This document shows positions 1,292 through 6,797 of a stretch of DNA of 49,345 nt, piece after piece. Source of the DNA: Thermoproteota archaeon (lineage in GTDB: Archaea > Korarchaeota > Korarchaeia > Korarchaeales > Korarchaeaceae); NCBI GenBank assembly GCA_027491735.1, contig JAOZGP010000026.1, forward strand, positions 1-49,345, in the 5' to 3' direction. The stretch's first letter is position 1; every line of letters begins with the position of its first letter. A model generated the notes under the pieces. The model saw nothing but the letters and a program-made list of their open reading frames with translations. It made no database searches and was not told where the DNA came from. The position numbers and the translations under genes are program-made.

Positions 1292-1690
1292 ATGTCGAAA
1301 CCGGAGAAGGGGAAGATAGGTGTAGCTCACATATATTCCTCCTTCAATGATACGATTGTTCACATAACAGACATCACAGGGGCTGAGACGATAGCCAGAT
1401 ACTCTGGAGGTATGTTTGTAGATGCTGATAGACTGGAGGGGTCCCCCTATGCTGCTCTTAAAGCGGCCATGGCTGCCGCTAAGGAAGCTAGAAGGAAGGG
1501 GATCACTCATCTCATAGTGAAGATCAGAGCTCCTGGTGGGATAAAAAGCAGAATACCTGGACCTGGGGCCACTGCGGCGATAAGGGGACTGTCAAGATCG
1601 GGGCTTATGCTCATAAGGGTTGAGGACGTCACACCCATACCTCACGACGGAACAAGGAGGCCTCATGGAAGGAGGGGCCGTCGTGTTTGA
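1292..1690 (+). CDS. rps11: 30S ribosomal protein uS11
   Basis: [28 protein letters not shown]...GRRGRRV. Confidence 0.98.
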
Positions 1691-1697
1691 TCGGGAT

Positions 1698-1707
1698 CTT
1701 TTTAAAT
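1698..1707 (+). promoter_or_regulatory. TATA box for the inserted ORF and rpoD
   Basis: TTTTTAAATA about 35 nt upstream of ATG 1742. Confidence 0.55.
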
Positions 1708-1741
1708 ATCTCACACCATATTGTTTCCTGGCTTAAGGGAA

Positions 1742-2830
1742 ATGAGCATTGATGTGATGGACATCAGTGATGAGGAGATCCGCAGGCTTCTGATGATGGA
1801 GTACGATAATGCAGAGATAAGATCTGGAAAATTTAACAGGAACCCACCCATCCTGAAGTCCTCTAATGGAATTGTGGGTACAGTGCTAACTTACTCTATA
1901 GAGTGTGGGACGGTCTTCAAGGATCTAGCTGTTCTTGTTCTGGAGGATAGGATTCCTGTTGGTGAACTGAAGAAGTGGGTTCTCGACAAGGTGTCCCGTC
2001 ACCTGGAAGAAGCGGTTGGTATTCGTCTCGTTGATGAAGTTAAGGTGTTGTACTACAACGATCAGGTTAGGTGTTTAGAGGACCCTCCTCCGCCTATCAT
2101 AAAGATCCTCGTTGAGGGCGTGTATAGCGAGGAGGAGAGGCGAGAACTTAGAAAGCAAACTGTATCCTTCAAGGAAAAGATTCTTACAAGTGAGTTTGGG
2201 GGACTTAAACCTCTGTCGGAGGTTACTTCAAGCGGTTTTAGCGAGAAGAGCGGAGATGATCAACTCAAACTAGAACAGGAATCTTCAAGCCCGGGGATTA
2301 TCAGGCGCGGAGGGAAATTCTCGATGGGTCATCCTACACCTCATCTCTACGAAGTGACTAATGGCAACAATGAATCAGGAGAACTTGGCTCTACGAAGAT
2401 CGCCGAGTTGTTAGGGATAGAAGAACTGAAGATAAAGATAGAAAAGCTGGAGTACTTGGTGGAAATGCTCATGAGGGCCCTTATAGGTAAATCTCCTGAC
2501 ACCGGCGTGATCAACATGGTTAGCAGCGCGTTACATCATTCACATAGGCCTCTCAGCGAGCAATCTCACATCACAAATCATGTTGAGGCAGAACCTCCAG
2601 GCGATTTCCGCAGAAGCGAACCCTCATCTCATGTTCTGTTCGGTGAGAAGCTATCGAGGATGGGTGAAAAAGAGGCAAACAATGACGCTGAGACCATCAG
2701 GCAGGCTAAGTTAAATTCAGAAGTGAGCGAACTTAGCAGTAAATCCGATGAATTTATAGAGGAGTTTCTGGTAGAAAACCCCTGGGCCGAGATACTCTCT
2801 AACAAGAAGAAAAGGGTGGGCGATAGGTGA
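1742..2830 (+). CDS. Uncharacterised protein with globular N-terminus, coiled-coil/disordered middle and C-terminal ENPWxxIL helix (arcadin-2-like tail)
   Basis: Long ORF with host-like codons; stop overlaps rpoD start (GTGA); ATG 1742 preferred over TTG 1721. Function is inference. Confidence 0.8.
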   Translation: MSIDVMDISDEEIRRLLMMEYDNAEIRSGKFNRNPPILKSSNGIVGTVLTYSIECGTVFKDLAVLVLEDRIPVGELKKWVLDKVSRHLEEAVGIRLVDEVKVLYYNDQVRCLEDPPPPIIKILVEGVYSEEERRELRKQTVSFKEKILTSEFGGLKPLSEVTSSGFSEKSGDDQLKLEQESSSPGIIRRGGKFSMGHPTPHLYEVTNGNNESGELGSTKIAELLGIEELKIKIEKLEYLVEMLMRALIGKSPDTGVINMVSSALHHSHRPLSEQSHITNHVEAEPPGDFRRSEPSSHVLFGEKLSRMGEKEANNDAETIRQAKLNSEVSELSSKSDEFIEEFLVENPWAEILSNKKKRVGDR

Positions 2831-3609
2831 AAATAAGGATACTCAGGCTCACTGAGGGTAAAGCTGAATTTCTTCTCGAGGAAACGACTCCTGCTATGGC
2901 GAATGCCCTTAGGAGAGCCATTCTCTCAGAGGTTCCGGTAATGGCCGTGCATGAGGTCATTTTTTTCACAAATACCACTGACTATCCCGATGAGTATATA
3001 GCCCACAGGTTGGCAATGATCCCAATAAGGACCGATCTAAAGAACTACTCAATGGATGAGGGCTCAGTTGTCACATTGAGGCTGGATAAGGAAGCTCAGG
3101 AGGAAGGAGTAGTTTATTCAGGAGATCTAGAGAGTTCGGATCCGCTCATAATTCCGTTAAACTCCAGGATACCAATAGTTACCATGAAAAGAGGCCAGAA
3201 GCTTAAGTTTGAGGCAATTGTTAAGTTAGGAAAGGGTAAGTGGCACGCTAAATGGCAGCCTGTGAGCGGATTAAGATATAGCTACACTCCAATCTACGAG
3301 GTCCTTCCTGAGGCCCTGCCTGAGTCATGTAAAGACTGTGAAAGCTTGGAAAAGAACAAAAACGGGATTCTGATAATAAGAGATCCGTACTCATGCCCCA
3401 AATGTGCTGCCGAGCTGGAGAGGATGTTAAACTCAGGAGACTCCAGGGTTCAGATCAAATGGGATGCCACCAGGATATTCATGGGATTTGAGTCGAATGG
3501 TCAAATTCCTCCATTCAGGATAATTCTCACAGCAGCAGATGAACTCATAAAGAAGTTTGATGAGTTTGAAAACAAGCTAAAGGAAGCCCTCTCCCTGAAT
3601 AAAGGATGA
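2827..3609 (+). CDS. rpoD: DNA-directed RNA polymerase subunit D (Rpo3)
   Basis: ANALRRAILSEVP, AHRLAMIP, GKWHAKWQP; Cys-containing insert. Confidence 0.96.
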   Translation: MKIRILRLTEGKAEFLLEETTPAMANALRRAILSEVPVMAVHEVIFFTNTTDYPDEYIAHRLAMIPIRTDLKNYSMDEGSVVTLRLDKEAQEEGVVYSGDLESSDPLIIPLNSRIPIVTMKRGQKLKFEAIVKLGKGKWHAKWQPVSGLRYSYTPIYEVLPEALPESCKDCESLEKNKNGILIIRDPYSCPKCAAELERMLNSGDSRVQIKWDATRIFMGFESNGQIPPFRIILTAADELIKKFDEFENKLKEALSLNKG

Positions 3610-3614
3610 AGACT

Positions 3615-4415
3615 TCACTTCAGGGATCTAATCACTTCCATAAGAGATCTGACCCTATCCTCTGAAACTGGGGAGGAGATTCCCCCTTCCTTGAAATATG
3701 ATCCAACTATGGCCCCGTCAGCGTATCTCAGAAGACTCACATTTCTGGGATTTATGCCACTACCAAGGAAAAGAGGAACATCCTTCAACTCTCTTCTAAG
3801 CTTCATCAAGGAGTTCTTGGTAGGAGGGATCCCAGTTCTGGTTCCCGTGATCACAATAACATCTGCCCCTCCTCTTTCGTATGCATCTAATGCCTCCTCG
3901 ACGATAGGTCTTGTGGAGAGGGGAGAGGCATGCTTGACGCGCACGTCAGCCAGTATCTTAACCTTTCCGCAGATGCTCTCAAGTCTAGATCTGGCCCTCA
4001 GAAGCTCGTAGGCTCTTCCCTCTATTATTCCCTGATCAGTGACGTAAGCATCTGTAAGCACGTTTACTCTTATGAACGATGCTCCCGTCGCCTGAGCTAT
4101 GGCCAGAGATGCCAGGGAATCATTTCTCAAGATGTTTACTCCGACAGGAACGCTAACAGATCTCATAACCTCTAGGACGGCCACTGTGACAGAGGTTATT
4201 GTTTCTGGAGGAACTCTGTCTGGATAGTACGGAAAGTCGAAGAAGTTCTCGATGAGAACGGCATCAACTCCACCTCTTTCCAGAGCTATAGCGTCTTCAA
4301 CGGCTCTCCTAACAACCAAATCGATCTTCTCAGGGTGAGGCGCTCCCAACGTTGGTCTCAGGTGCACCATCCCTATTATAGTAGGACCATCGGACAGTAC
4401 AAGCTCGCGGCTCAT
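3615..4415 (-). CDS. btpA: BtpA/SgcQ family TIM-barrel protein
   Basis: IIGMVHL, ENFFDFPY, GVNILRND, ADVRVKH, GADVIVITG, DGAIVGSYFK; probable ATG at 4415. Confidence 0.9.
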   Translation of the reverse strand: MSRELVLSDGPTIIGMVHLRPTLGAPHPEKIDLVVRRAVEDAIALERGGVDAVLIENFFDFPYYPDRVPPETITSVTVAVLEVMRSVSVPVGVNILRNDSLASLAIAQATGASFIRVNVLTDAYVTDQGIIEGRAYELLRARSRLESICGKVKILADVRVKHASPLSTRPIVEEALDAYERGGADVIVITGTRTGIPPTKNSLMKLRRELKDVPLFLGSGINPRNVSLLRYADGAIVGSYFKEGGISSPVSEDRVRSLMEVIRSLK

Positions 4416-4457
4416 ACAACATGTTTTAAGTTGCTGAACCCAATATTTATTTCTGGT

Positions 4458-6797
4458 ATGAAGGTCTCCTTCTGGCTTCTGGATATAGATTCTCATAAAC
4501 CTGGTCCTAGACCGCAGGTAAGGCTTTGGGGAATAGACGAAGGGGGGAGAAGGGTTCTTCTAATTGATAAGAACTTCCTTCCCAGGTTCTACGTTGTTCC
4601 AAAAAATAACAACTTCCTTAGCGCGCTGATGGACAAATGCTCTAGAATTGAGGGAGTAGCTGAAGTAAAACCTGTGAGAAGGAGGTTCCTTGGAAGGGAG
4701 CTCATGTGTGTCGAGGTCCTAGTCAAAGATCCATCGAATATGGACAGGCTGGCCAAGAAGATTTCGAATCTTGAAATCGTGATGGGCTGCTATGGATACG
4801 ACGTAAGGTACACCATGCAGTACCTGATCCTCAAGAACCTGCCTCCCTGTAAGTTCATCGAGGTGGAGGCGTCACCAACCTCTAGACCTGAGGGTGCGCA
4901 GATAGACTTGGCCTACGAGATCGTAGGTGAATTCAAACCCTCTGTGATCGAAGAGCCACCAGAGCTGAGAACTCTCTCTTTTTATTGCGTGATTCCAGGA
5001 GAGAAAGGATCTCCTGATCCTAAGAGCTCTCCGGTGGTTATGATATCAGTGATAACGCCTGATGATGAAATCATCTGTCTTGAGGCCGGAGACGGGGATT
5101 CAGATCTGCTCAAAGACTTCTGTGATGTTATAAGGTCAAGCAATCCAGATGTAATATTTGGTTATGGAACAAACAAGAGGGACTGGATATACCTAGTCGA
5201 AAGAGCTAAGATTAATGGAATAAAACTTCCTGTCGGTAGAACAGGACTGTTTCCGCACACAAGCGCGTATGGCCACGTGTCTGTCACTGGAAGAGCAAAC
5301 CTCGACCTCCTAGATTTCGTGGAGGACATACAGGAGATAAAACTGAAGACTCTACAGAACGCGGCGGACTATCTGGGTGTGATGTCAGAGAATGAGGGAC
5401 CGGAGATACTCGAGTATGATCTCTATGACTACTGGTCCAGAAAAAGGGAGATCCTCCGCGATTACGCTCAGCATAACGTAATGAGGGTTAAAGGCCTTGG
5501 GGAGGAGTTCTTAGATTTTGGAATTCAGCTATCCCAGGTGGTTGGTCTTCCGCTGGATCATGTGGCTGCTGCGGCCGTGGGTTTTCGCGTGGAGTGGTTC
5601 CTGATAAAGGAGGCTGTGAGAAGGGGGGAGCTCGTTCCTCCTAGAAAGGAGGCCTTCGCTGGTAGCTATGTAGGTGGAATAGTCCTCAAGCCGGAGCCGG
5701 GAGTTCATGAAGACATAGCAGTTCTCGACTTCGCTAGCATGTATCCAAACATAATGATGCTGAACAACATTTCTCCAGACACATACATCCCTCCTGACGA
5801 ACCGGATCCCCCTCAAGGTTGTTATGTAGCTCCGGGGGTGGGTCATAGGTTCAGAAAAGAGCCGCCGGGATTGTACAGGGAGATACTGTCTGAACTCATA
5901 AGAGCAAGGAGGGAGGTCAAAGAGAAGCTGAAGTCTCTTCAGGAGGATAGTCCGTACTATAGAGTACTTCAGGCTAGACAGAGAGCTTTAAAGGTCATAG
6001 CTAATGCTACCTATGGCTACACAGGCTGGGCTGGAGCGCGCTGGTACCTCAAGCCTGTAGCTGAGGCTACAGCCGCTTGGGGTAGACATTACCTCAGAAG
6101 CATAATAACGATGGCTGAGGAGGCAGGGTTCAGGGTCATATACGGGGACACGGACAGCATCTTCATTAGATATAGGGAAGGAGTCGATGATCTTCTGAAC
6201 AGGATAGAAAAGAAACTCTCTCTTGACATAAAGCTTGAGAAGATCTACCAAAGGATAATTTTCACTGAGGCCAAAAAGAAGTATGCCGGAGTGCTTGAAG
6301 ATGGCACCATTGACCTAGTAGGTCTCGAATGCGTTCGTGGGGATTGGCCTGATGTGGCCAGAAAGGCACAGAGGGAAATCGTTAGAATAGTTCTGACAAC
6401 GAGAGAAATAAGAGAAGCTAGACAGAGGGCAAAGGCTTTCATTAGGAAGTATGTGGAAGACGTCAGGAACCTGAAGGTCCCTCTCAAAGATTTTACTATA
6501 TGGAAGGAGATAACAAAGAAGGAGTACAAGGCCAGAACACCTCATCTCAAAGTTACCGAAGATCTGAGGAGGATGGGTTGGAAGATAAAGCCGGGAGATA
6601 AGGTAGGATATGTGGTAGTCAAGGGAAGCGGAAAGCTGTACGAGAGATCGGTACCGTTCTTCAAGGCTTGCCCTGAGGACATTGATATCGACTACTACAT
6701 AGATAAGATGATATTTCCAGCCGTCATGAGGATACTAAAGCTCATCGGAGTCGAGGAGTCAGAGCTAAAAGGAGGGGGATTAGAGGAATTTCTTTAG
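4458..6797 (+). CDS. polB3: Family B DNA polymerase, PolB3-type, with degenerate 3'-5' exonuclease motifs
   Basis: DFASMYP, KVIANATYGYTGW, YGDTDS, KKKYAG intact; N-terminus FWLLDI typical of PolB3; probable ATG at 4458. Confidence 0.92.
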   Translation: MKVSFWLLDIDSHKPGPRPQVRLWGIDEGGRRVLLIDKNFLPRFYVVPKNNNFLSALMDKCSRIEGVAEVKPVRRRFLGRELMCVEVLVKDPSNMDRLAKKISNLEIVMGCYGYDVRYTMQYLILKNLPPCKFIEVEASPTSRPEGAQIDLAYEIVGEFKPSVIEEPPELRTLSFYCVIPGEKGSPDPKSSPVVMISVITPDDEIICLEAGDGDSDLLKDFCDVIRSSNPDVIFGYGTNKRDWIYLVERAKINGIKLPVGRTGLFPHTSAYGHVSVTGRANLDLLDFVEDIQEIKLKTLQNAADYLGVMSENEGPEILEYDLYDYWSRKREILRDYAQHNVMRVKGLGEEFLDFGIQLSQVVGLPLDHVAAAAVGFRVEWFLIKEAVRRGELVPPRKEAFAGSYVGGIVLKPEPGVHEDIAVLDFASMYPNIMMLNNISPDTYIPPDEPDPPQGCYVAPGVGHRFRKEPPGLYREILSELIRARREVKEKLKSLQEDSPYYRVLQARQRALKVIANATYGYTGWAGARWYLKPVAEATAAWGRHYLRSIITMAEEAGFRVIYGDTDSIFIRYREGVDDLLNRIEKKLSLDIKLEKIYQRIIFTEAKKKYAGVLEDGTIDLVGLECVRGDWPDVARKAQREIVRIVLTTREIREARQRAKAFIRKYVEDVRNLKVPLKDFTIWKEITKKEYKARTPHLKVTEDLRRMGWKIKPGDKVGYVVVKGSGKLYERSVPFFKACPEDIDIDYYIDKMIFPAVMRILKLIGVEESELKGGGLEEFL

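Follow-up and report, generated by a model that had tools for sequence, protein, structure and literature searches.

The closest described system to the gene considered here is arcadin-2 (Rkd2; arCOG05584; NF053561) of Thermoproteales, for which a structure of the crenactin-bound peptide is available (Izore et al. 2016, PMC5173319; PDB 5LY3). There, the Pyrobaculum arcadin-2 helix is described as competing with the crenactin D-loop for the groove, with a Kd of 31 nM. Here, we examined a 49,345-nucleotide (nt) window from a korarchaeal genome (contig JAOZGP010000026.1 of GCA_027491735.1; the genome is called G000, other G-numbers denote genomes, L-numbers loci, and C-numbers the contigs of G000), in which the gene order is rps13, rps4, rps11, a 362-amino-acid (aa) open reading frame (ORF), and rpoD. 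We put the probability that this ORF is a diverged, relocated arcadin-2 at roughly 70%; because it is conserved between rps11 and rpoD and ends in the helix by which arcadin-2 grips crenactin, it probably represents the actin regulator that Korarchaeota had seemed to lack. An earlier sequence-only reading had described it as an orphan gene with an arcadin-2-like tail; tail homology, the presence of crenactin, tail conservation, and a predicted complex all held up, and the word "orphan" did not.

The homology of the window tail to the arcadin-2 helix is supported by reciprocal sequence profiles, each of which recovered the other side. A tail profile of korarchaeal proteins alone (from A1, an alignment of korarchaeal orthologues of the window ORF with L012 left out) was searched against 2980 ORFs taken from around crenactin in other archaea (80 loci), and the top 45 ORFs all adjoin crenactin and end in N(P/E/T)W (E ≤0.19; next match 0.89). 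Twenty of the 34 aligned crenactin-adjacent ORFs match NF053561 at E 0.001 or better. The reverse profile, free of korarchaeal sequences, ranked the window ORF first among 15,564 G000 frames (E 1.7e-4; next 0.42), and N[PE]W occurs within the last 30 residues of just 3 of the 2983 G000 frames of ≥100 aa, the NPW-tail gene being present there in a single copy. The 203-aa L208 protein, which passes the Rkd2 model (300.3 bits against a cut-off of 290), ends at R187-R203 in GENEWVKILRSKR, so that the arcadin-2 peptide given in the sequence-only reading proved correct; residues 340-356 of the window protein share 6 of 17 positions with L208 187-203, including N, W, and L. An arginine-bounded peptide of the L208 type appears in the passages of PMC5173319 on the arcadin-2/crenactin work. 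The tail quoted there for the window ORF stops short of the true end by four residues (…KKKRVGDR).

The position of the gene is conserved as well. An ORF of 255-369 aa ending in NPW..(I/V)L lies directly 5' of rpoD in 28 of 30 relatives' loci, the two exceptions belonging to another class of the phylum, and after eight loci were added the order rps11, NPW gene, rpoD was found in all 36 loci of the window's class, drawn from 40 genomes; this was the synteny check proposed at the outset. In two of the remaining class genomes, G016 and G042, neither rps11 nor rpoD was matched; a third, G045, lacks an rpoD match, and its rps11 lies close to the end of a contig. The family member in Korarchaeum cryptofilum is annotated as hypothetical, and its membership sets the window among the Korarchaeota. 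In a deeper class of the phylum, an arcadin-2-like gene stands directly before rps25 (L167:6881-8046; L168:6218-7779; L169:1-765), a second location among clustered ribosomal genes. The sequence-only reading proposed co-expression with RNA polymerase and a possible tie to growth rate; given the other location in the deeper class, the rpoD junction as such is not essential.

Alignments reveal a three-part layout common to the ORF family and arcadin-2. The coiled coil and disordered linker noted from the sequence are borne out by a predicted model, in which a helix containing the coiled coil has a predicted local distance difference test (pLDDT) of 82-94 for residues 221-250 and is flanked by low-confidence linkers; the full-length model is poor (pLDDT 50.8), and fold searches with it were uninformative. 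In A1, the coiled-coil leucines L229, L236, and L243 are conserved and N346, P347, W348, and L352 are invariant among 27 orthologues, so the tail is indeed conserved. For a single pair, the window protein and its G001 orthologue (61% identical), nonsynonymous and synonymous rates (dN/dS) were 0.075/0.69 in the N-terminal domain, 0.04/0.65 in the tail, and 0.42/1.15 and 0.49/0.84 in the linkers, with identities of 87% over the N-terminal 130 residues, 73% in the coiled coil, 90% in the tail, and 35-39% in the linkers. Judged from these sequences, the N-terminal domain, coiled coil, and tail are under purifying selection and the linkers drift.

The prospective partner is encoded in the same genome, as had been expected for Korarchaeota. 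The G000 crenactin is a 426-aa actin (C16:15237-16514) that matches PDB 4CJ7/5LY3 at E 2.9e-97 and NF053560 at 569.7 bits, below the cut-off of 630, and 31 of the 32 phylum genomes gave a crenactin match, the other genome being 75% complete. Crenactin and the NPW gene lie on different G000 contigs; crenactin has no arcade cluster around it and is flanked by unrelated genes both in G000 and in same-class relatives, and in the deeper class it adjoins a gene with a best NCBIfam match, under cut-off, to arcadin-4. Across 221 Thermoproteota genomes, crenactin is present in 83 and the tail in 68; every one of the 68 is among the crenactin-bearing genomes, and the tail occurs in none of the 138 crenactin-less genomes. 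All but G186 and G276 of the 15 discordant genomes were retrieved, and each of these 13 has a NEW-type arcadin-2 beside crenactin. A search of G000 for arcadin-1 (PF18653) gave no match, with the control also silent, and is uninformative. The best G000 match to arcadin-4/Rkd4 (78 bits, cut-off 860) is a 910-codon SMC/Rad50-like frame at C12:714-3302, probably Rad50.

Modelling of the G000 crenactin with residues 324-362 predicted a complex with a score of 0.87 against 0.02 for the best control; the score mark applied lets through 116 of 157 solved complexes and 2 of 215 mismatched pairs. The runs share at least 87% of contacts, and the partner pLDDT is at least 71. In the model, W348 and L352 touch crenactin residues 168-174 and 403-408 that, going by actin numbering, we take to form the hydrophobic groove, and both side chains are predicted to insert into it. 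Crenactin, a conserved tail, and predicted binding, the three things on which the sequence-only reading stood, were thus all found.

The N-terminal domain was approached through intermediates. Two same-order proteins at the same junction (L033 and L034) match the arcadin-2 N-terminal profile with a score of 37.0 and a probability of 90% over 86 columns (122 decoys, best 20.1) and also match the family core (33.2, 77%); the arcadin-2 profiles exclude three membrane forms and the truncated L071. A PD-(D/E)XK-like fold is predicted for the family domain, and the same fold class is predicted for the korarchaeal and arcadin-2 domains; no catalytic D…(D/E)xK motif is conserved among the 37 N-terminal domains. 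The chains XisH (2OKF), BglII (1D2I), NucS-type (2VLD), and Rpb5-type presumably all have this restriction-endonuclease-like fold. The Rpb5 likeness could be taken to mean that the protein is an accessory of RNA polymerase or the ribosome, with a domain like the Rpb5 jaw and a tail that binds another partner, which we regard as highly improbable. As a separate observation, a gene at C27:85346-86335 is a weak top G000 match of the arcadin-2 N-terminal profile (E 0.008-0.085) and has no NPW tail.

Several points weigh against identifying the ORF as a relocated arcadin-2. The window N-terminal domain has no direct arcadin-2 match (14.1) and is linked to arcadin-2 through intermediates only; even against its own family it scores weakly, at 25.4 across 36 columns with the best decoy at 20.7. 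The pooled N-terminal match is unstable, at 97%, then 23.7 and 12%, then 15.3, of which 23.7 exceeds all 122 decoys (best 18.5) and 15.3, obtained with larger alignments, falls within the decoy range. NF053561 matched neither the window protein nor any of 27 orthologues, and across 43 phylum genomes it gave seven weak matches and none above cut-off, the G000 match being on another gene. This model is narrow (the crenactin-adjacent L217 scores 38 bits, and L208 alone among ten scanned proteins passed), and because the window protein does not reach its cut-off, we class it as a variant outside the equivalog. Furthermore, the NPW tail is portable, occurring on unrelated protein types (RHH, HTH, wHTH, C2H2, KaiC, and membrane proteins), so that the tail alone is no proof of orthology. 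A crenactin-binding helix grafted onto an unrelated nuclease-fold coiled-coil protein, with the true arcadin-2 lost in the class, would fit this portability, the failure of the Rkd2 model, and the unstable pooled match, and the PD-(D/E)XK-like fold is a common one; nevertheless, we consider such grafting improbable, given that L033 and L034, which share the junction, link arcadin-2 to the family, that they match arcadin-2 (37.0) better than mostly stand-alone nuclease-like relatives (13.3; a weak control of four sequences), that there is one such gene per genome, and that a plainly arcadin-2-like gene lies in the deeper-class ribosomal cluster.

Other adverse points concern binding. The predicted complex resembles the solved 5LY3, and since that structure exists and arcadin-2 tails were in the alignment, the score may reflect likeness only. 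Of the 29 predicted contact positions, the G000 and L208 crenactins agree at only 12; set against 180 of 411 for the whole protein, the interface is not more conserved than crenactin at large. The genomes in which tail and crenactin co-occur are kin, and the co-occurrence is for that reason a pattern rather than an independent test. Moreover, a 37th copy, in one relative (G050; L246, C33:16200-17120), is frameshifted close to a G run, immediately ahead of the NPW tail, either through assembly error or through genuine tail loss. The frameshift, the modest interface identity, and a crenactin without arcade neighbours would all suit a relic tail whose crenactin binding was lost in the lineage; we give this very little credence, as the tail is the most constrained part of the protein (dN 0.04 versus 0.42-0.49 in the linkers) and NPW..L is invariant.

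Database searches explain why the gene was called an orphan, a description that is true of such searches alone, since positional homologues run across the class. Single-sequence searches of the window protein against Pfam, NCBIfam, and PDB gave no match; a search of 1.84 billion representatives returned the protein itself only, and single-sequence searches of relatives matched 4 of 41, none beyond the genus. Of 8000 candidates scored when the A1 profile was run against 5.8 billion proteins, 4 were returned, and each of them seems to belong to the family. When A1 members were scanned with Pfam and NCBIfam, the only matches were scattered ones to coiled coils, and an A3 profile against PDB gave coiled coils only. 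In an rpoD-based metagenome scan, 4 of 14 loci were korarchaeal and close intermediates were not found. Atlas feature matches for a homologue were all below 0.9 and serve as leads only.

If the ORF is a relocated arcadin-2, its NPW helix would, as modelled, occupy the hydrophobic groove of the G000 crenactin, whose gene lies elsewhere in the genome, and, by analogy with Pyrobaculum arcadin-2, may compete with the D-loop of the next crenactin subunit, leading to monomer sequestration or filament breakage. The N-terminal domain would serve as a docking domain, the coiled coil likely oligomerises the protein, and the long linker may let the tail reach crenactin from the docking site. The arcade cluster would have broken up early in the phylum, the gene having since been kept within ribosomal gene clusters.

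The features of the locus are collected in the table. Both the placement of the ORF between rps11 and rpoD and the GTGA overlap of its stop with the rpoD start (2827-2830) agree with the earlier description, as does the TATA box, apart from a position one base to the right of the 1698-1707 given there. By its sequence, TTTTTAAATA is likely an internal promoter and could double as the rps11 T-run terminator; a TATA-like box lies ≤60 nt from the rps11 stop in 33 of 36 class loci versus 6.7 expected under a lenient, mostly coding background. A sigma-70 promoter scan was discarded, that model being inapplicable to archaea. A convergent BtpA-like gene, recognised by eye, follows rpoD in G000 (window 3609-4496) and G001, and in many relatives rpl18e-rpl13-rps9 takes its place.

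Table. Features at the rps11-rpoD junction (window coordinates)
Feature	Position	Strand	Basis or remark
rps11 (upstream neighbour)	1292..1690	+	Pfam Ribosomal_S11 E 3.9e-40
TATA-like box TTTTTAAATA	1699..1708	+	sequence
Diverged arcadin-2-like protein (putative), 362 aa	1742..2830	+	ATG 1742 to TGA 2830
N-terminal alpha/beta domain, about residues 8-126	1763..2119	+	poorly modelled in window copy
Coiled-coil segment IEELKIKIEKLEYLVEMLM, residues 226-244	2417..2473	+	within predicted helix 215-247
Arcadin-2-type C-terminal helix, residues 340-356	2759..2809	+	W348 = 2783-2785
rpoD/Rpo3	GTG 2827-3609	+	Pfam RNA_pol_A_bac + RNA_pol_L; PDB Rpo3 E 1.4e-40

Beyond the family, NPW helices also end ribbon-helix-helix (RHH), helix-turn-helix (HTH), winged HTH (wHTH), C2H2, and KaiC proteins. 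Small RHH/wHTH proteins with a coiled coil and an NPW tail were seen at L193:1285-1737 (G004) and at L241:3100-3528, L198:1175-1612, and L195:1498-1938 (G012), with more small RHH/wHTH NPW-tail genes at L196:1520-2167 and L153:1285-1767 (G005); they lie in mobile-looking regions with integrase, primase large subunit, and radical SAM genes nearby and, by analogy, are candidate ParR-like adaptors. The L195 and L196 proteins have no Pfam match; the L193 protein is followed by an integrase fragment and has a tail almost identical to that of its host genus's rps11-rpoD gene. A conserved gene combining HTH, coiled coil, and NPW tail (L224, L227, L229, L230, L233, L234, L236, L237, L239, and L240) occupies chromosomal-looking settings in crenactin-bearing Thermoproteota. 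C2H2/wHTH-like NPW-tail genes of 120-135 aa (L223, L225, L226, L228, L231, L232, L234:18141-18506, and L235) recur in a cluster with a Rad51/RadA-like ATPase, to which L223 adds HerA/VirB4-like and T2SSE ATPases. At L073, L080, L081, L083, L107, L133, L139:4685-6565, and L145:4828-6681, the crenactin-adjacent tail sits on a 620-aa KaiC-family ATPase or on what look like membrane proteins, and a VWA-like gene, recognised by eye, is often nearby.

A wider and decidedly tentative proposal, by analogy, is that archaea have in the NPW helix their own equivalent of WH2, a portable crenactin-docking tag; arcadin-2 would be more than a sequesterer, namely an adaptor with a dead nuclease-fold domain on nucleic acid and a tail on crenactin, and the tag would serve RHH, HTH, and zinc-finger proteins, some of them encoded near integrase, primase, or conjugation genes, in a ParR-ParM-like manner. 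If true, the task of crenactin would be to position chromosomes and mobile elements or to segregate them. An arCOG table (PMC10936438 supplementary file 8; columns counted by eye) lists crenactin in both Korarchaeota columns and arcadin-2 in neither, and passages of PMC9723716, PMC5840170, PMC7613921, and PMC12222021 and a supplement row of PMC9723716 contain no assignment of arcadin-2 to Korarchaeota; a literature search, mostly of title-level records, found no publication making this assignment or calling the tail portable. The window gene family fills this gap, which suggests that, in these groups, genomes with crenactin apparently always retain its groove-binding regulator as well. The 17-residue peptide can now be assayed directly against a defined partner, and the likely nuclease-like arcadin-2 core, together with the same tail on DNA-binding proteins, makes the cellular role of crenactin (shape, division, DNA segregation) testable.

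Compared with known systems, the window protein resembles arcadin-2 in its N-terminal alpha/beta domain, coiled coil, variable linker, and C-terminal helix with invariant N-x-W-x-x-x-L, in sharing its genome with crenactin, and in predicted binding centred on the tryptophan. It differs in being 362 rather than about 200 aa long, in being encoded between rps11 and rpoD outside the arcade cluster, in lying below NF053561 detection, and in its much diverged N-terminal domain; an effect on filaments is known for arcadin-2 only. A short helix in the actin hydrophobic groove is also a feature of ParR of plasmid R1 and of WH2/thymosin beta-4, as passages of PMC5173319 set out. Like ParR, which joins a nucleic-acid-binding-type domain to such a helix, the window protein may do the same, a likeness of layout that claims no sequence kinship.
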